Shown here one piece after another: positions 3,930 through 61,237 of a stretch of 64,000 nt of DNA. Position numbers and translations under genes: made by a program. Source of the stretch: Giardia intestinalis. Taxonomy: Eukaryota. The stretch is from the NCBI GenBank assembly GCA_000002435.2, contig CM018793.1, one strand, 5' to 3'. Position 1 is the first letter of the stretch. The number at the start of each line of letters is the position of its first letter. The notes beneath the pieces were generated by a model that was given only the letters and a program-made list of their open reading frames with translations, did no database searches and had not been told where the DNA came from.

Positions 3930-4003
3930 GTGCCCGTGGCGTAATTGGATAGCGCGCCTGACTACGGATCAGGAGGTTGCAGGTTCAAGTCCTGCCGGGT
4001 ACG
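3930..4003 (+). tRNA. tRNA-Arg (anticodon ACG)
   Basis: A manual cloverleaf fits. Acceptor GTGCCCG/CGGGTAC has one G-U pair. U8, D-stem GCGT/GCGC, and D-loop AATTGGATA are present. Anticodon stem CCTGA/TCAGG encloses loop CTACGGA with U33, anticodon ACG and G37. Variable loop AGGTT, T-stem GCAGG/CCTGC, and T-loop TTCAAGT follow. Discriminator is G and the length is 74 nt. Confidence 0.85.
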
Positions 4004-43685: not shown

Positions 43686-46600
43686 ATGAGGGTGCTCTTG
43701 CTCCTCTGCTCTACTCTAGCAAACTACTCTTTTGTTTCCCCGCCCATTGCTGCGAAGACGCCGATTAGCCTCGTGGTCTATGAAAGAACAAATACGGATA
43801 TGCTTCCTCAGGAGTCTCCAACGTGTGGTTCAAAGTCTATAACCTGTCCAGGATATACGGATCCTGCCTCTCAAGTAATCTCGTCGTCTACTTGTGTCTA
43901 TACATATCCCTACACTGCATCATCTGCCTCTTCACCTAGCACCTGCACTATTGATAGTGTGAGTATTCCCATTGCTAATAAGGTTGATGGGTACATAGAC
44001 TATCTTCCTCTGCTCCACAATACGTCGTTCTTTGACACGGACGAAAGTTACAGTAGTATGTACGCGTCTTTTAAAACGTATGAAGTCAACGGAAAGACGT
44101 ATGCAAACGTGAGTGAGCTGCCCATCTATGGCACCGCTATCTCTCCGTCTGGGAGAATAGCAGCATGCTACACAGCCAACAGGGTCACTGTCTACTTCGA
44201 CCAGGATACGTCTTCAAGCAACTTTAAAGTTCTCTCAGGAGCAGACCTATTTCCAACTGAAATTCTCCCAGGAGAGATGACCGTCATGTCAGTTGACATC
44301 TCGGATGAGTTTCTTATCATCATGTTCGGCCAAACCAATGGTGGGTCCCAGATTGGCTTTAGAATATTTGAATTAAACATAACCGAAAGTACATTGGATA
44401 AAAAGATTAAGCAATTCTCTGTTAAGACCAAGACAACAGACATGCTATTTCGTGGGAGCACCAGCGGGACAAAGATAGGGTCATTCACTGCAAACAGCTG
44501 TCATAAAGGGAGTGTCGCCCTGGACAAGGTAGGCACAAAAGAATACATCCTGGGGGCAATAGTAACTTGTCCAAACAGTAGCTATACGCACAACTTCATC
44601 TTTACGGCCACAAACGTTGGGACCGCGTTTGCCTTTGTCCTAAAGAAGGATGGCACCTGGCTGGGTCAAACCACACCTCTGCTCCTTGTCCCCGACATAC
44701 CCTCAGACGCTCCACTGACAGAAATAATGAGGAATTACCAATTTACTACAGCAGCCATTCAAAACGGACGAGTGTTTCTTTCTGGAGGAAGCCAGGTGTT
44801 ATACTACACATTTCTGAGCTCTGGTGACTATGGTAGCCTTCAGGGTAAGACAAAGACCCTGAGCTCAATCACTGTTTTTCAAGACAACGCTTCTCCGTTG
44901 ACGCCTGGCCCGGAACCAAGGGACAGAACGTCAACCGTTGGTCCAGCAATGACCTTCACGTACAACAACACCTTCCTCGTTGGAATAGACTCTGGGCAAT
45001 CTCCTGCTGTCGTTTTGGAGTACAATCTAAGCGATTCCACAAACGTAGTCAAACTGGGAGCTATCGTTAACATGTCCACTCCTCATATATTATCCCCCCT
45101 GGGATTTGGGCTAGATAGCGTGGCCATTATAGACAATCAAGATAGAAGTCAAGTGAGGTTTGCTCGTCTTCCGAGCGCGCAACCAGTTACAGCCGACACA
45201 GTGCTCTCCACGACCTCCACCATTGAGTGGATGACCATTACAGCACCTACCACCGTAGAAACAACAGAAGAAGACTCAGACTTTCAGGTACAGTCAGATA
45301 AGATTATTCCCCGGTCGAGAAGGAACCTTGTCTCCCTCTCCTACAGCAATGGCCGGATCGTTGCGTTTAATCCGACCAATATCAGAACTCAAACGCTATA
45401 TCTTGGAAACCTAAGCATGTACAGTGTTCTTGTCGGCGATAAACTTCCAGAACTTGAACTCAACACAAGTACAGCTTCTGCGGGTAGTAATATCACCATC
45501 ACGTATAACACTTTATTTTCAACTACCTCACCACCCAGTGGAAGCGGCACAGACTCGGCCAAGTGCTTGCTATTCAGTTTGCAATATACTGGCAGCAACA
45601 TCGGTCTTTTGCCGAGTGATATCTCTACTAAGTCATATACCAGCACTACATCAGCTAATGCTGGTACATACCTCTCATGTGTGTACACGTTTCAGGTCCC
45701 TATATATGCACACAACTACCAACTGGGCCTGTATTCAGCAGGAGTATTGGTTGCAACTGGCAACCTTTCTGTCACTCCCACTGAGCAAACTACTGTCAAC
45801 GCGGTGATATTCAACCCGTCTATACTACGAAAAGATCGGCAACTCAGTGTCTCGGTCATACCCGGAGACAAGTACGGAAACAGACTAGTGTTTGCAGACA
45901 CTCGCGCGGCTGCTTCTCTACCGAACTGTGACTTTTTCAAGCTTATAGTGTACAACATCTCACAGTATCCCGAGGACGTTGATTACTCTACCGTTAGTAG
46001 CGCGCAAGGACTCGACGAGGTGGCAGAGCTACACTTTGTCAAAAACGGGACACATTATTGCACAACAAAACCGGTTGTTATTAATGCCCAAGGCCAGTAC
46101 CTCTTCAAATTGACAGATAAAGATGACCATGACCTGGAGCTTTCTCCAAGCGTTATGCAACAATTGGTGACGTGGGTGAACGAGCCAGCGGGGCTTAACC
46201 ACCCAAAAATGGCGTGGGGAGTACTTGTTTTGGCGATTGCATTACTCACGCTGGTTATCTTCATTGTACCATTCCTCCTGTATAGGTTTTTCAACAGGCC
46301 TCCGGAGACTATCTTCAAAGGGTCTTACGTGTCTGCAAATAAAGGGGCGACCATAGAAGAGCGCGAGGCCATGCGCAAAAAGTACCAGAATGCAACCCTG
46401 AGTACATCTGGCCAGAGAGTATTGTCGGGAATCCCGTTACTTTCTGTCCTTAGAAATGAGCTGGGAAAGAATCTGTTAGCAAAAAACACAGACGAAGCAG
46501 CAGCATCTATATCTGTTGTTGATGAGCCCAACAAATCAAGTTCTGCATCATTCACGGCTAAGTTCGCAAGACAACTCCATGAGATCCGCTCTACAATCTC

Positions 46601-47390
46601 ACCGAATGTAATCAGCCAGCTCCAATCTGTGAGGAAATACATTAGTACCGGCGCAAATCAGTACGCTAGTACTGATGATTGTTCTGGTTGTAGTAAGTGG
46701 ACGCAAGAAAGCGGGACCTTTTTCATATACACATTTCCCGCAATGGTAGGAGAACCCCCCGAGCCTGCCCTTGTTTTCGCATCTGAGTTTTCTTCTGCTA
46801 ATGTGGTAGAAACATATGTAGACCAGCTCACTTTATGGACGTTGTTGCCAGATGTAGAGGGCCGCCTCGCCATCAAGGGGATCTTTACCTACGAAAACAA
46901 ACCAATTGCAGGCAATAAGTGTGATGGTATTCAATCAGTCCTCAATGCAATATCTTTGACCTCCTCGCACTTCGTCATAGTGCTAGCAGAACCAGCCTCA
47001 CTCTTGAGCAGCCCATCCAAGGCCGATGTTCAGTGTGTTGTTCACGCTCTCAGAGCAGCCATATTCAACTGCATCCCGTCCAGGGGGCTTGGAGGAGCTG
47101 TCCCTTCGTCCCTTTGGAGAGACCGGACAGGAGCTGCCAAGCTCGGCCCGCCAACTATTATGAGCAAGGCCTATATGCTCCAGGGACTTTCAAGCGAGAG
47201 TTCTGCCGACTACGAATTACGCTGTTTGATTGTAGCGCTAGTAGTCTTGTCGTGTGTTCCAGCTGTGGATTACAGAGAGGCACTTGAGTGCAAGATCAAC
47301 AGTGCAGCGATCAGAAACCCTTATCTCGCTGGCTTGTACTCCCAAATCCAATCGGTAGGATGGGCAACCCTGCGTGCTGAGACAGAGTAG
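43686..47390 (+). CDS. type I membrane protein: signal peptide, about 820-aa ectodomain, single TM, about 370-aa cytoplasmic tail
   Basis: ATG at 43686, only 8 bp after the preceding stop. N-terminal signal peptide MRVLLLLCSTLANYSFVSP. One TM helix MAWGVLVLAIALLTLVIFIVPFLLY is followed by basic residues RFFNRP. Not CXXC-rich, so it is not a VSP or high-cysteine membrane protein. Confidence 0.75.
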   Translation: MRVLLLLCSTLANYSFVSPPIAAKTPISLVVYERTNTDMLPQESPTCGSKSITCPGYTDPASQVISSSTCVYTYPYTASSASSPSTCTIDSVSIPIANKVDGYIDYLPLLHNTSFFDTDESYSSMYASFKTYEVNGKTYANVSELPIYGTAISPSGRIAACYTANRVTVYFDQDTSSSNFKVLSGADLFPTEILPGEMTVMSVDISDEFLIIMFGQTNGGSQIGFRIFELNITESTLDKKIKQFSVKTKTTDMLFRGSTSGTKIGSFTANSCHKGSVALDKVGTKEYILGAIVTCPNSSYTHNFIFTATNVGTAFAFVLKKDGTWLGQTTPLLLVPDIPSDAPLTEIMRNYQFTTAAIQNGRVFLSGGSQVLYYTFLSSGDYGSLQGKTKTLSSITVFQDNASPLTPGPEPRDRTSTVGPAMTFTYNNTFLVGIDSGQSPAVVLEYNLSDSTNVVKLGAIVNMSTPHILSPLGFGLDSVAIIDNQDRSQVRFARLPSAQPVTADTVLSTTSTIEWMTITAPTTVETTEEDSDFQVQSDKIIPRSRRNLVSLSYSNGRIVAFNPTNIRTQTLYLGNLSMYSVLVGDKLPELELNTSTASAGSNITITYNTLFSTTSPPSGSGTDSAKCLLFSLQYTGSNIGLLPSDISTKSYTSTTSANAGTYLSCVYTFQVPIYAHNYQLGLYSAGVLVATGNLSVTPTEQTTVNAVIFNPSILRKDRQLSVSVIPGDKYGNRLVFADTRAAASLPNCDFFKLIVYNISQYPEDVDYSTVSSAQGLDEVAELHFVKNGTHYCTTKPVVINAQGQYLFKLTDKDDHDLELSPSVMQQLVTWVNEPAGLNHPKMAWGVLVLAIALLTLVIFIVPFLLYRFFNRPPETIFKGSYVSANKGATIEEREAMRKKYQNATLSTSGQRVLSGIPLLSVLRNELGKNLLAKNTDEAAASISVVDEPNKSSSASFTAKFARQLHEIRSTISPNVISQLQSVRKYISTGANQYASTDDCSGCSKWTQESGTFFIYTFPAMVGEPPEPALVFASEFSSANVVETYVDQLTLWTLLPDVEGRLAIKGIFTYENKPIAGNKCDGIQSVLNAISLTSSHFVIVLAEPASLLSSPSKADVQCVVHALRAAIFNCIPSRGLGGAVPSSLWRDRTGAAKLGPPTIMSKAYMLQGLSSESSADYELRCLIVALVVLSCVPAVDYREALECKINSAAIRNPYLAGLYSQIQSVGWATLRAETE

Positions 47391-47618
47391 CGACCACGAG
47401 TGCCTCGGCAGCTTAAGTAAAGGGTCAGAGCATTGTAAGACGGCAAACGTCACAAGGTAAGACGGGCGGCCGTCGTCCTCAAGATAGGTCGCTCCCAATC
47501 ATCATATCTCATACGAATGGATCGGAGGGCGATGAATTTCAAAGTCTAATTCCAATTCTAAATAGATGACTCCAGCTGTAACCTTTACAGCGTCACATGG
47601 GTCGGGTCTTGGAACAAT

Positions 47619-49646
47619 ATGCTTATATGGACACTACTCTTCTCTGCAGTGGCCCAGCAGGCTGCTCTTCTTGACATATATTTGCGAGGCCAAAAGGCAT
47701 ATGGGGACATCGCTGCGGCCGCAAGTGAGCACAACTGCATAGCAGAGGTGAGCAAGGATATGGTCCCCATGTGCAAGAAAATCCTACTCCAGTCGGACCA
47801 CGAAGCAGAAGGCGAGACCATTCAAAGAATTCTTGCACTGCGATTGACAAACTGCTACCTCGAGATGGCAGGAATGTCTCCAATAAACTGCTCTGTGACT
47901 GGCTGGAAAGGCACTATTTTGGGAAGCTTCGGGGTATCTAAGGCAAAGAGTGTGAGTCGGGCCATGGCAGAATGCCTCAAAAGGATTGGTGAGCAGAACT
48001 CTGGTGCTGCCTTTCAGGTGTTTGTACAGCAGCTAGGGCGCGTCTTTGATATTTGCATGTATCTAGATGCGAAAGACTTCCAGCGACAGTCAGCCGAGGC
48101 GGCAGAAACCCTCCTTAGGTCATCCAAGGACGCGTCTGCTTTGATAACATCGGTTCTCGGAACCGTCCAAGGCAGTTATGAAATTCTTGAGGGGTATGTC
48201 CGTCTGCTTGACACTCTATCCAAAAATCTTACCCGCGTTGAGACTACTGCCCGAGAAGATCAAGACCACATACTACGCTCTTTAATGGCGATTCGTCTGA
48301 GCATGCAAGATGGCGAGAAAGAGCTCAACGACCTAATGCTGCATACTGCATCGCTCCAAGAGCAGGTCTTGCACAAGGTTGACTACTCCGTCACGACTCT
48401 CTATTCTCGTTTAGACACCATCAATGACCAGCTTGAAGTTCTTGGAGAAGGAGCCAAGCAACTCACAGACAACGTGAGTGCAATTTCCCAGAGGCTAGAA
48501 ACGGTAAGCAATGACACAGATGCATTGTCAGAGAAATTCCAGCATCTATCGGAGGCTGTAGATGAGAGCAGAAAGGTGATTGAGGCTAACCAAGAAGCTA
48601 GCAGAGATATCATGGTCAATACGCGATTAGCAATGGAATCTATAGAGCAGCAGGCCAAGAAGCAGGCAAAAACACTATCTAACATAAATAGTGCAGTAGG
48701 CAGCATTAGCAGTGGATTAGGAGGTGATGGCTCCTCAGAGTCATCTTGGAAAAGAGTAGGGCCATTGCAACTGCTATGGAAGCTAGAAAGAGCTGCTCCC
48801 GGTGGAATCCTTTGGTATCTTGCACTGCACATATGTGCACAGACGCTGATTAAGCTAGGAGCCAGCGGGAGACATGCTGTATCAGTAAAGCGTGTTGCTC
48901 TTCTGGTCGTTCTCCTTTCATACGGTGCAGAACTCCTGATAAACACGACACTGAACAAGATCCTGACGGCCATATGGCTTTACGGTTGTGCACCGTTCAT
49001 AGCTTTGTTCGGGCGGGTTGCCGAGTGGTTTCGAATCCGTCGCATTCGGAGATTTCTTTTTCTAAGCTGCGAAGGCAATGAGCCTTGCCTGCGGTCCTAC
49101 GAGTCACAGGTTCGCATCACTCCCGGAATGGGATATAAAGAAATATTCTATGGCTACATGTATGGTTTGTGGGAATCTGACTATGTGGACGTACTGAGTG
49201 CTACGTCCCTGCACAGTAAGTTTGGGTGCTCTAGTGAGACTCACGACTGCTTTTTACAGTACGCCCACGATGTGACCAAGTTCAGCATCAGTTCAGGAGC
49301 TGTTTCTACCGTTGTACGGCTAGTATCATCCGCAGGTCTTGCGCTTTATGTCCTTACAGCGGTGCTTAATATACCACGTCTGCGCTTTCCCTTCGAGAAT
49401 ATATACACAAGCTTTATACAGGAAAGAGATGCAATTGGTGAACCAGCCGCCGGATTACAGCGTCAAAACTTTCGCATTAATGAAGAGACTCTCCGATTGT
49501 CTACCTTGGAAAGTCAGCGCCGCACAGAACCGGGAGTTTCCGACCACTCTGTAGTAGCCGCCAAGAAGGGAAATGTACGTGCTGCACGAAGAGAGTACAC
49601 TCTTGCACACAAAAAGCGTTCCAGAGCGAGCTCGGTCTCTCTGTAA
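47619..49646 (+). CDS. signal-peptide / Cys-containing N-domain / coiled-coil / multi-TM protein (KAR5/GEX1-like candidate)
   Basis: Signal peptide MLIWTLLFSAVAQQAALL. Six Cys in the first 150 aa (HNCIAE, PMCKK, TNCYLE, INCSV, AECLK, DICMY). Coiled coil runs roughly residues 160-370. Three TM segments follow (ILWYLALHICAQTLIKL; VALLVVLLSYGAELLI; ILTAIWLYGCAPFIALFG), then a basic stretch RIRRIRRF and a further hydrophobic helix. Confidence 0.7.
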   Translation: MLIWTLLFSAVAQQAALLDIYLRGQKAYGDIAAAASEHNCIAEVSKDMVPMCKKILLQSDHEAEGETIQRILALRLTNCYLEMAGMSPINCSVTGWKGTILGSFGVSKAKSVSRAMAECLKRIGEQNSGAAFQVFVQQLGRVFDICMYLDAKDFQRQSAEAAETLLRSSKDASALITSVLGTVQGSYEILEGYVRLLDTLSKNLTRVETTAREDQDHILRSLMAIRLSMQDGEKELNDLMLHTASLQEQVLHKVDYSVTTLYSRLDTINDQLEVLGEGAKQLTDNVSAISQRLETVSNDTDALSEKFQHLSEAVDESRKVIEANQEASRDIMVNTRLAMESIEQQAKKQAKTLSNINSAVGSISSGLGGDGSSESSWKRVGPLQLLWKLERAAPGGILWYLALHICAQTLIKLGASGRHAVSVKRVALLVVLLSYGAELLINTTLNKILTAIWLYGCAPFIALFGRVAEWFRIRRIRRFLFLSCEGNEPCLRSYESQVRITPGMGYKEIFYGYMYGLWESDYVDVLSATSLHSKFGCSSETHDCFLQYAHDVTKFSISSGAVSTVVRLVSSAGLALYVLTAVLNIPRLRFPFENIYTSFIQERDAIGEPAAGLQRQNFRINEETLRLSTLESQRRTEPGVSDHSVVAAKKGNVRAARREYTLAHKKRSRASSVSL

Positions 49647-49674: not shown

Positions 49675-50475
49675 ATGGGGTCCTCTGCATCTCTTGCCAA
49701 GGCATTTAAAATTAACAGTGGGGGATATAATACGTACGAGCAGTTTATTAGCGCTGTTAGAGATGCTAAAATAGAGTGTGCTCGCTTTGTGGTGGCTGTT
49801 GATTTCAGCCGGTCCAACATTAGTAGGGGTCAGAAGGACCCCAAAAGGGGCGCAAGCCTTCATAGCTCGAAGGACATATATGGGAATGTAATCCCAAACG
49901 ATTATAGATACGCTCTAGAGAAGCTCATCGAGGTCATACAGCTCTTTGACTCTGAAACAGAGATCAAGTTCCTCACCTTCGGGATGAAAAAGAAGCTGAC
50001 CGCCGAGCAGATCTCTGTCGATGACCTTGTAAAGCATTATGATGTCATGACTGCAGAGTTCTTTTCACGGATTGAAGCCAACGCAGAAGCGGAGAGCAGC
50101 ACCATCGCCCCAGTTATATATGAAACAATCAAGGACACAGTGAAAAATAAGGACTACCAGATTCTCATTATCCTCACGGATGGAGACCTCACAGATATCG
50201 GTCGAGATGCACAGGCTATCATAGACGCCAGTAACTTCTCCATTTCCATAATTGCACTAGGCATCGGAATCGGGCCTTTCACATCTTACAGCGAGTTTGA
50301 TAACGTCCTTTTCCAGAGAAGATTTGATAACTTTAATTTTGTCAATTTATCAGAACTTCTACGAACAAAGGAGCGAGCAGACGAACCACCCTTGAATGCA
50401 CGGGATTTTGCAAGAATAATCTTATCAGAATGCCCCGCCCAGTATCGCGACATCCGGGAGTTGAACATAGTTTAG
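49675..50475 (+). CDS. copine-type vWA (A-domain) protein with N-myristoylation motif, no C2 domains
   Basis: MGSSASL fits M-G-x-x-x-S. FVVAVDFSRSNISRG...DP..SLH...NDY..ALEKLIEVIQLFDSETEIKFLTFG and YQILIILTDGDLTDIGRDAQAIIDASNFSISIIALGIGIGPFTSYSEFDN...RFDNFNFVNL match the copine A-domain consensus (IDFTgSNg...LH; LLIiTDG.ItD...T..aIv.AS.LPlSIIiVGVG...F..M..LD). Confidence 0.8.
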   Translation: MGSSASLAKAFKINSGGYNTYEQFISAVRDAKIECARFVVAVDFSRSNISRGQKDPKRGASLHSSKDIYGNVIPNDYRYALEKLIEVIQLFDSETEIKFLTFGMKKKLTAEQISVDDLVKHYDVMTAEFFSRIEANAEAESSTIAPVIYETIKDTVKNKDYQILIILTDGDLTDIGRDAQAIIDASNFSISIIALGIGIGPFTSYSEFDNVLFQRRFDNFNFVNLSELLRTKERADEPPLNARDFARIILSECPAQYRDIRELNIV

Positions 50476-50527: not shown

Positions 50528-52342
50528 ATGCATTCTGCCGGCTTCCACGTACAGGACCCAGCTGTATCTTCGCAACGGTTTGTCCCAATGCCTCTCAAGT
50601 TCATCGAGAAGGCTATTGGGCAGCACGAAGTTTCGTTGGGAGCAGACCAGGGCCTTTTTAAGATTACCATCGCAGACCAGGACTCGACGTGTCTGACATC
50701 CGATGCTCCTCGTCCCACGTGTTATGTCACGTCCCCCGAACTGGTGCGTGATGCTCTTTCTGGACCGCTTCTCGGACCCGCGGAATTGTCTAAATGCTTT
50801 GTTGTCGGAATGCACAACCATGGCGTTACATGCTATGTTAATGCATGCATCCAGATGTTACAGGCTAGCGTCCATGCAATGAAGTTGCTTATCAGCACGC
50901 AATATCGCGGACTACTCGCAAAGGATCAGCTTTCTCGTGCTGTTTTCAGCACCCTTGACGATCTCCGTGATGCAGCCAGGAGCTCTCACAGGAGCTCCGG
51001 TGCGTCGTATGGGACGATGTATCCTAAGCAAATCATCAACCAACTGCCGCGCTTTCACATGTCTCCGTACTCAATGGGCGATGCTTATGAGCTTCTTCTG
51101 CTGATCCTGGACAATATTTCCACTGCAGAAATCCGAGTAGCCAGGGCAGATGAGTACGTTCCCCCAAATCGCGACACAACAGCGATTGATCAGCTATTCG
51201 GGCAGCTACAACGAACAACAATTTCCTGCAGCACATGCAAAAAGGATACTATCAGCTACTCTTTGACACGGTCCCTCCAGCTTCCTCTGAACACCTCGCT
51301 CTATGGGGCGATGAAGAAGTATTTTAGGGGCAGCGAGGTGGACGGATATCGATGTGAAAAGTGTGGACAGAAGACAAAGATATCTATGGTTCAGAACATA
51401 TGTAATACACCAACGATTGCCCTTTTCTGCATTTCGCGGTGGGACAGCTATGGAATGAAGAACTCTCAGCCATGTGCGTGTCCGCTGGAGCTTGACATGT
51501 CTCGAGGTCTGTCACGGGATATAGTTGAGCCTCTTGCTCCAAAGCATAGCAAACAGAAGAAGCACGGTAAGCAGAGGGGTTCGTTGGCAAGCATGCTAGC
51601 CAACCCTGACAAACATATTGGCGCCCCATCCACTGTGACTCATCGGCTTGTTGCAATGATAAATCACCACGGTTCTACCATGAATTCGGGCCACTATACC
51701 GCGTTTGTTCGAGATGTCACCTCGGGGGTCTGGTACCTTGTGGATGACTCGATAGTCACGCGGGCATCTGAGGCAGAAGTTTCAGCAGGAACCGATGCAT
51801 ACGTGCTACTGTACGAAAAAGCAGACATATCTGTAAGAGGGGCTGCTGTAGCTCACGAAGTTATTGCATCTGTACATGAGGACGAGGAGATCTTAAGTTC
51901 CCTACCCTCCTCAGCTCAGCAGAATACAAAGAAGACGTCAACTGTTGCGGCTAGCAGCATTGTAGAAGGCAACAATCCAGTTGACACACCCCCTAGGAGG
52001 AGTTCTAAGATGTGTACCGATCCAAGTTCACTTGAGAAAGTCCTCTATCCAAACAAAGTGGAAACATGGACCGGCGAGGACCTTCCACCAGAAATATTGA
52101 CAGCCAAAGCACCGAATGGAGAACTTGCACTGGTAAGCGACTACTTGCATAGAGGTCCCGATGAGATGGACGCCGAAATTGATCGAGGTAGGCGTCGGAA
52201 AACTAAAGCTATCAGAGAAGAGAACCACCGGCAACACACGCTCGAGGCAAGAAAGAAAAAACACGAGCGGACGCAGCAGTGGAAGAAAAGGATTGCTTCG
52301 CGTACGATAGTTAATATATTTAAGAGAATACGCAAGCAGTAG
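50528..52342 (+). CDS. ubiquitin carboxyl-terminal hydrolase (USP/UBP family deubiquitinase)
   Basis: Cys box GMHNHGVTCYVNACIQML and His box GHYTAFVRDVTSGVWYLVDDSIVT are both present. A basic C-terminal tail follows. Confidence 0.85.
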   Translation: MHSAGFHVQDPAVSSQRFVPMPLKFIEKAIGQHEVSLGADQGLFKITIADQDSTCLTSDAPRPTCYVTSPELVRDALSGPLLGPAELSKCFVVGMHNHGVTCYVNACIQMLQASVHAMKLLISTQYRGLLAKDQLSRAVFSTLDDLRDAARSSHRSSGASYGTMYPKQIINQLPRFHMSPYSMGDAYELLLLILDNISTAEIRVARADEYVPPNRDTTAIDQLFGQLQRTTISCSTCKKDTISYSLTRSLQLPLNTSLYGAMKKYFRGSEVDGYRCEKCGQKTKISMVQNICNTPTIALFCISRWDSYGMKNSQPCACPLELDMSRGLSRDIVEPLAPKHSKQKKHGKQRGSLASMLANPDKHIGAPSTVTHRLVAMINHHGSTMNSGHYTAFVRDVTSGVWYLVDDSIVTRASEAEVSAGTDAYVLLYEKADISVRGAAVAHEVIASVHEDEEILSSLPSSAQQNTKKTSTVAASSIVEGNNPVDTPPRRSSKMCTDPSSLEKVLYPNKVETWTGEDLPPEILTAKAPNGELALVSDYLHRGPDEMDAEIDRGRRRKTKAIREENHRQHTLEARKKKHERTQQWKKRIASRTIVNIFKRIRKQ

Positions 52343-61142: not shown

Positions 61143-61237
61143 TTGGAGTGCCGGGAGTCGAACCCGGGTCGTAACCGCATACGTAGTTGATAGCCATGCC
61201 ATCAAAGGCCACTGTGCTCCCGCTGCACCACACCCCA
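61143..61237 (-). tRNA. tRNA-like gene, probably intron-containing (tentative anticodon UUG, Gln)
   Basis: On the minus strand the acceptor TGGGGTG/CACTCCA pairs fully with one G-U. U8, D-stem GTGC/GCAC, and D-loop AGCGGGA (A14, GG, A21) are present. Anticodon stem GTGGC pairs with GTTAC across a 25-nt insertion that follows loop CTTTGA (U33, TTG, A37). The insert contains TCAAC, complementary to the anticodon. T-stem CCGGG/CCCGG and T-loop TTCGACT are present; discriminator is A. The variable loop is only 3 nt (GAC), so this is not fully canonical. Confidence 0.4.

Follow-up and report, generated by a model that had tools for sequence, protein, structure and literature searches.

GL50803_005536, a Giardia intestinalis protein of the GEX1/KAR5/Brambleberry family with a putative role in nuclear-envelope fusion

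It has long been asked whether the two nuclei of Giardia ever fuse and exchange DNA, and the answer matters for the low heterozygosity of the parasite and for how sex originated. One open reading frame (ORF) of the 64,000 nucleotides of G. intestinalis DNA analysed here (the window; contig CM018793.1 of assembly GCA_000002435.2) is relevant in this respect: does it encode a member of the family responsible for nuclear-membrane fusion in yeast, plants, algae, malaria parasites and fish (PMC4291462, PMC7586128)? The ORF, located at 47619-49646 on the plus strand, is uninterrupted in the ORF list from its ATG at 47619 to its stop codon at 49644-49646 and encodes 675 amino acids (aa). Exact-sequence look-up identifies the product as GL50803_005536 of G. 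intestinalis WB clone C6 (XP_037902389.1, KAE8306106.1; UniRef D3KGQ0), whose name in the NCBI and UniRef records is 'hypothetical protein'. The gene lies on a 4.0-Mb contig, and the window is thus chromosomal DNA of Giardia assemblage A. A previous sequence-only reading of the window had proposed a KAR5/GEX1/Brambleberry-type protein at this position. Our analysis supports this proposal: the N-terminal Cys-rich domain (CRD) is homologous to the six-Cys domain of the family, and membership is shown at the level of the CRD and of the architecture. Taken as a whole, the data are best explained if the ORF encodes the GEX1/KAR5/Brambleberry nuclear-envelope protein of G. intestinalis, acting when two nuclei meet, an explanation that we consider likely.

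Rogers and Rose (PMC4291462) gave four defining features of Kar5p orthologues, including an N-terminal CRD and two or three C-terminal membrane helices. The definition of GEX1 by Nishikawa et al. (PMC7586128) is the same, GEX1 having three membrane helices, and Kar5 and Brambleberry two. The function of yeast Kar5p needs its six Cys and its coiled coil 1 (PMC4291462). The Giardia protein displays a signal peptide (recognized heuristically), the six Cys, a CRD that matches the family by profile comparison, a coiled coil following the CRD and C-terminal helices. Its CRD spans aa 37-154 (47727-48080; this and all the protein features below are on the plus strand) and is delineated by hhalign comparisons, shuffled controls, Cys invariance and AlphaFold2 (AF2) modelling. 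The six Cys in 150 aa that had attracted attention to this protein are exactly six indeed, i.e. C40, C52, C79, C91, C119 and C146. All of them are invariant in five Giardia orthologues (71-89% identity) and they also align in G. muris, in two other diplomonad-like proteins and in an algal/haptophyte group. The AF2 model of the CRD is all-helical with a mean predicted local distance difference test (pLDDT) score of 84, confidence being low only in an insertion between the fourth and fifth Cys (about aa 92-115).

The homology of this domain to that of bona fide GEX1 proteins is supported by a direct comparison of alignments. As a reference, we used the CRDs of nine land-plant GEX1 proteins taken from Supplementary Figure 6A of PMC7586128 (alignment A10), and compared them by hhalign with an alignment of diplomonad CRDs headed by the Giardia sequence (alignment A5). 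The two alignments match over 89 columns with a probability of 96.4%, a score of 67 and an E value of 1.1e-9, which, as for all the hhalign E values given here, is that of one single comparison. The match spans Giardia aa 37-154 and the entire plant domain. Column-shuffled versions of the Giardia CRD scored 11.8±2.0 (200 shuffles, maximum 18.0), and reversal of the alignment gave 11.1. The real score is therefore about 27 standard deviations (SD) above the column shuffles and, since the shuffled and reversed controls score far lower, the match is no composition effect. Motifs common to Giardia and GEX1, among them RLA-x-x-LT(N/D)C(F/Y)L and C-x-x-LQ-x-x-x-F, can also be recognized by eye: ILALRLTNCYL of Giardia aligns with RLAMRLTNCFL of Physcomitrium, and ICMYLDAKDFQR of Giardia aligns with MCHHLQSEAFKQ.

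The spacing of the six Cys, which can be compared across the family, is compatible with that of both yeast Kar5p and plant GEX1. From the C1-C2 to the C5-C6 interval, it is 12, 27, 12, 28 and 27 in G. intestinalis WB, 12, 23, 12, 14 and 27 in G. muris, 12, 24, 12, 9 and 28 in the algal protein P0019, 12, 23, 14, 11 and 25 in yeast Kar5p (C56, C68, C91, C105, C116 and C141) and 12, 20, 13, 9 and 22 in GEX1 from Arabidopsis. The long C4-C5 interval results from an insertion of about 19 residues (about aa 92-115) that is specific to G. intestinalis, the corresponding interval being 14 in G. muris.

Relatives that link diplomonads to other lineages were recovered by searching 1.84 billion representative proteins exhaustively with HMMER and the Giardia CRD profile; only seven proteins were retrieved at E <= 0.001. 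Five of them form the diplomonad part of the matches: the assemblage B orthologue, P0015 (686 aa), GMRT_20199 of G. muris (P0016), and P0017 and P0018, two short diplomonad-like proteins, one of which is an 87-aa fragment. The two others, P0019 (E 3e-5) and P0020 (E 4.7e-5), are of a G+C-rich algal/haptophyte type and have a relative among the hypothetical proteins of Pavlovales. The algal proteins carry the same six Cys and a stretch that resembles a coiled coil; among the three long ones, two also show a clear pair of hydrophobic helices. Diplomonad and algal alignments match each other with the Cys in register (hhalign, 97.5% probability, E 6e-12) and the algal family matches the plant GEX1 reference A10 (98.7% probability, E 2.6e-16). 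Several algal members also match weakly the Pfam family Tht1 (PF04163; E 0.12-0.36, 10-11.6 bits). These matches fall on the CRD (profile positions about 65-168), and Tht1 is the sole Pfam match in three members. It is also the sole Pfam match of a consensus of thirteen CRDs (E 0.0014, 17.9 bits); the consensus of diplomonad CRDs taken alone has no Tht1 match in Pfam.

Single-sequence methods gave less. Pfam scans of the whole protein, of its N-terminal 198 aa and of four orthologues detected nothing above threshold and no Tht1, and phmmer found no match among PDB sequences. Word-index homology searches retrieved close Giardia or algal relatives only, none of which bears the name of GEX1, KAR5 or Brambleberry, this method being too insensitive for such a distance.

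The Gex1/KAR5 assignment of this gene is already known, only as an entry in a supplementary table. Salas-Leiva et al. (2021; PMC8516963, supplementary file 4) independently listed GL50803_5536 and GL50581_3767 as Gex1/KAR5, together with GMRT_20199, 20508, 20520, 23984 and 24442 from G. muris. The file also gives accessions of Gex1 from Trichomonas, Monocercomonoides, Carpediemonas and Kipferlia. Our sequence searches recovered exactly the Giardia genes that are listed there. The Hap2 cells of the same table are empty for G. intestinalis WB and GS and for G. muris, and, according to the main text, Hap2 and Gex1 are conserved in metamonads, in which a sexual or parasexual process has never been directly observed (PMC8516963). 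The GL50803_5536 identifier was not found in the main text of any article in the literature searched. Hence, the present work adds a controlled homology test, a domain map including the lineage-specific parts and a link to the encystation time course.

The domain order that follows from this map agrees with the one that the sequence-only reading had described, except for the number of the membrane helices. The first 12 aa (MLIWTLLFSAVA; 47619-47654) are hydrophobic and variable among orthologues, and the A-V-A motif is followed by invariance from Q13. They probably behave as a cleaved signal peptide, with cleavage probably after A12, according to a heuristic reading of hydropathy and orthologue variability. 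The CRD is followed by a predicted lumenal coiled-coil or helical region at aa 152-369 (48072-48725). This is the sole region where the heptad score, a simple home-made one compared with shuffled sequences, exceeds the 99.5th percentile of the shuffles, and aa 160-375 are free of Pro. AF2 predicts two long helices here (129-247 and 250-366), and sub-threshold Pfam matches over aa 187-372 are to coiled-coil families only. As the full-length AF2 model is poor (pLDDT 54, predicted template modelling score 0.30), secondary structure alone was taken from it. The long coiled coil that had been proposed is thus recovered by both the heptad score and the AF2 helices (129-366).

Three predicted hydrophobic helices (about aa 395-415, 419-446 and 445-469; 48801-49025), recognized by Kyte-Doolittle hydropathy (KD) and AF2, come next and are followed by a basic RIRRIRR stretch. 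The corresponding AF2 helices are 397-415, 423-456 and 458-483. The first helix of this cluster (aa 395-415) is only moderately hydrophobic (KD 1.39). G. muris and P0015 have hydrophobic segments at the corresponding C-terminal positions. The strongly basic RIRRIRR after the third helix points to a cytoplasmic or nucleoplasmic orientation of this side. A fourth hydrophobic helix at aa 557-590 (49287-49388; AF2 helix 559-583) is the most hydrophobic one in the protein (KD maximum 1.94). Therefore, C-terminal helices are present as previously proposed, but they number three to four instead of two to three, and the first one lies at 58% of the protein length.

The third and fourth helices are separated by a loop of about 87 aa (49026-49286), defined from alignments, that contains four invariant Cys (C484, C490, C537 and C544) and the invariant motif FYGYMYGLWESDY. 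We found no similarity of this loop, or of the aa 470-590 module as a whole, to any family. The region of P0015 that aligns with aa 470-590 is much diverged and keeps one of the four loop Cys. The protein ends with a basic tail (49389-49643) that is probably disordered, as judged from composition, conservation and pLDDT below 50. Residues 587-675 include 17 K+R vs 10 D+E, with a conserved end, ...AHKK(R/H)(S/A)RASSVSL. In G. muris, five gene copies fall in one cluster at 90% identity (P0016 and P0025-P0027, corresponding to GMRT_20199, 20508/20520, 24442 and 23984). The proteins that they encode have 454-455 aa and end after the helix cluster, without the four-Cys loop and its FYGYMYGLWESDY motif, the fourth helix and the basic tail.

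Full-length orthologues of the gene are found in assemblage E strain P15 (GLP15_1342, 89% identity) and in assemblage B strain GS (GL50581_3767 cluster, 77%), and two more Giardia lineages carry orthologues with 74% and 71% identity. Gene order is kept at the P15 and assemblage B loci, with a gene for a large hypothetical protein upstream, and a copine/vWA gene followed by a UCH gene downstream. Furthermore, 25 positions of the alignment are unchanged as far as G. muris. The ORF list, the exact look-up, the orthologues and the synteny all indicate a complete gene at 47619-49646.

A rise of expression during encystation, which had been proposed as a check of the family assignment, is found in published data. 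Sequences upstream of genes that are up-regulated at 3.5, 7, 10.5 and 14 h of encystation were scanned by Rojas-López et al. (2021; PMC8700996), whose Table S3 contains a single entry for GL50803_5536, under '14 hours (no motif in WB)'. The gene is therefore absent from the 3.5, 7 and 10.5 h lists. Hence, the gene is reported to be up-regulated at 14 h of encystation and to lack a canonical Myb2 site (CWACAG). An inverted repeat, CTGTAA-N3-TTACAG (47576-47590, no strand assigned), lies at -43 to -29 from the ATG, and each of its arms differs from the Myb2 site by one mismatch. Across WB, P15 and assemblage B, neither of the six-base arms changes, and one base of the spacer varies. On the basis of this three-lineage conservation, the repeat can be viewed as a candidate promoter element.

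The 228-bp spacer upstream of the ORF also contains GlsR13, a C/D-box small nucleolar RNA (snoRNA) gene, at 47423-47522 on the minus strand (Rfam RF02479, 129.5 bits vs a gathering score of 100, E 1e-28). The spacer is nearly invariant among assemblages A, E and B because GlsR13 is located there. We therefore rejected the conservation of this spacer as a regulatory feature of GL50803_005536, the snoRNA gene being carried by the opposite strand.

By analogy with Kar5p, GEX1 and Brambleberry, we infer a role of the Giardia protein in nuclear-envelope fusion during encystation. The protein would be inserted in the endoplasmic reticulum (ER) and nuclear envelope and anchored by the helix cluster, with the CRD and the coiled coil in the perinuclear lumen. 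It would act when two nuclei meet, at or after fusion of the outer membranes, by coupling the outer and inner membranes, and would thus support the step that leads from outer-membrane fusion to inner-membrane fusion. This might rely on Cys-dependent association in the lumen and on self-association through the coiled coil. The probable setting in Giardia would be mid-to-late encystation and the cyst, and the substrate would be nuclei lying together in one cell. Induction at 14 h together with the lack of a listed HAP2 fits nuclear fusion without cell fusion. Both karyogamy and the exchange of episomes between nuclei have been reported in Giardia cysts (Poxleitner 2008, Carpenter 2012).

Several points weigh against a nuclear-fusion protein of the GEX1/KAR5/Brambleberry family. 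Identity between the Giardia and plant CRDs is only 18%. In their alignment, five of the six Cys align exactly and the fourth one is one residue off register, because an additional residue separates C3 from C4 in most plants. Machine reading of the plant sequences from a PDF introduced a few errors, although these can only weaken the match. The gathering score of PF04163 (21) is not reached by the Giardia protein, its orthologues or the pooled consensus of thirteen CRDs (17.9 bits). As a control, none of the nine bona fide plant GEX1 CRDs matches PF04163, even at E <= 10. Since these fail as well, the PF04163 model covers the fungal branch only and provides no family-wide criterion. We assign the protein to the literature-defined GEX1/KAR5/Brambleberry family and not to PF04163 itself. 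The CRD insertion, the four-Cys loop, the fourth helix and the basic tail are not mentioned in the family descriptions of PMC4291462 and PMC7586128. Encystation up-regulation is taken from membership of a published list, and no report of a nuclear-envelope localization or of a nuclear-fusion role of the Giardia protein was found in the literature searched. Moreover, karyogamy in Giardia cysts is itself debated.

Alternatively, the protein might be a true GEX1/KAR5 member that has taken over a different function at the nuclear envelope or in the ER, such as envelope remodelling in the nuclear divisions of encystation or organization of ER membranes, and that takes no part in nuclear fusion. The lineage-specific loop, fourth helix and tail would be in line with such a change of task, as would the five near-identical, truncated 455-aa copies of G. 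muris, a situation that is unusual for a karyogamy factor with one purpose only. The rise at 14 h falls in a time of broad remodelling, HAP2 is unlisted and no sexual cycle has been observed (PMC8516963). However, members of the family act in nuclear fusion in every organism tested (PMC4291462, PMC7586128), the six Cys that are essential in Kar5p are strictly kept in Giardia, and fusion of nuclei has been reported in Giardia cysts (Poxleitner 2008). We consider re-use without nuclear fusion to be unlikely, while giving it more weight than the other alternatives.

A protein unrelated to the family is far less probable still. The ORF would then encode a secretory or ER/Golgi coiled-coil membrane protein of the Giardia lineage, for example a component of the encystation secretory machinery, with a Cys pattern acquired by chance. 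This reading is countered by the whole-domain profile match to plant GEX1 CRDs, some 27 SD above shuffled controls, by the algal group, which provides independent transitive links, and by Tht1 being the sole Pfam match of the pooled consensus. In addition, no competing ER/Golgi family was detected in the Pfam or PDB searches. Lastly, the idea of a fortuitous ORF or of a pseudogene in decay, for which one could invoke the annotation of GL50803_005536 as a hypothetical protein only, is effectively refuted: the conservation of the ORF (frame-intact, full-length orthologues in at least five Giardia lineages, syntenic in P15 and assemblage B, with 25 positions invariant out to G. muris) and its published transcript regulation exclude a non-gene, and the antisense ORFs that overlap 47619-49646 are short.

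If the GEX1/KAR5/Brambleberry protein of Giardia does act in nuclear fusion, a more specific proposal can be made, which is tentative and which we hold with clearly less confidence. Giardia might keep GEX1 without a listed HAP2 and induce it midway through encystation, so that nuclei within a common cytoplasm can fuse ('diplomixis'). An ancestral sexual machine for nuclear fusion would then serve on its own, with no cell fusion involved, and homogenize the two genomes; the Giardia-specific loop with its four Cys, the fourth helix and the basic tail might be adaptations to this intracellular role. An encystation-induced GEX1/KAR5 homologue is no new kind of system; it can be viewed as a concrete handle that makes the question of karyogamy in Giardia testable.

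As regards the surroundings of the gene, only 28 bases separate its stop codon from the next ATG. The downstream neighbours, both on the plus strand, encode a copine/vWA-domain protein (49675-50475; Pfam Copine, E 7e-26) and a UCH-type ubiquitin hydrolase (50528-52342; E 1e-34). The upstream neighbour (43686-47390, plus strand) encodes a protein of 1234 aa that has an N-terminal hydrophobic segment and an internal stretch resembling a membrane helix and that has no Pfam match. Elsewhere in the window, Rfam detects transfer RNA genes at gathering threshold at 3930-4003 (plus strand) and 61143-61237 (minus strand); the latter match has 95 bases and may contain an intron.

As regards the closest known systems, GEX1 from plants, Chlamydomonas and Plasmodium shares with the Giardia protein, in the same order, a signal sequence, the six-Cys domain, coiled coils and a cluster of three helices. 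Both are induced in a reproductive or differentiation stage. In Arabidopsis, GEX1 is mislocalized when GFP is fused to its C terminus (PMC7586128). Unlike GEX1, however, the Giardia protein has a C4-C5 insertion of about 19 residues in a CRD that is about 18% identical and, beyond the helix cluster, is extended by a four-Cys loop, a fourth helix and a basic tail. Another difference is that the gamete fusogen HAP2 is unlisted for Giardia in the table of Salas-Leiva et al. (PMC8516963).

With Kar5p of S. cerevisiae and Tht1 of S. pombe, the Giardia protein has in common six conserved Cys of similar spacing, which are lumenal in Kar5p, as well as a signal peptide, coiled coils and, towards the C terminus, membrane helices, of which there are two in Kar5p and a predicted three to four in Giardia. 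Kar5p acts together with Prm3p and with the spindle pole body (PMC4291462). Brambleberry of zebrafish, compared by its description only, also has a CRD, a coiled coil and membrane helices (two in this case), and is needed for the fusion of pronuclei and of karyomeres (PMC4291462, PMC7586128). However, Brambleberry acts after envelope breakdown in open mitosis, whereas diplomonads have a semi-open mitosis in which the envelope persists.

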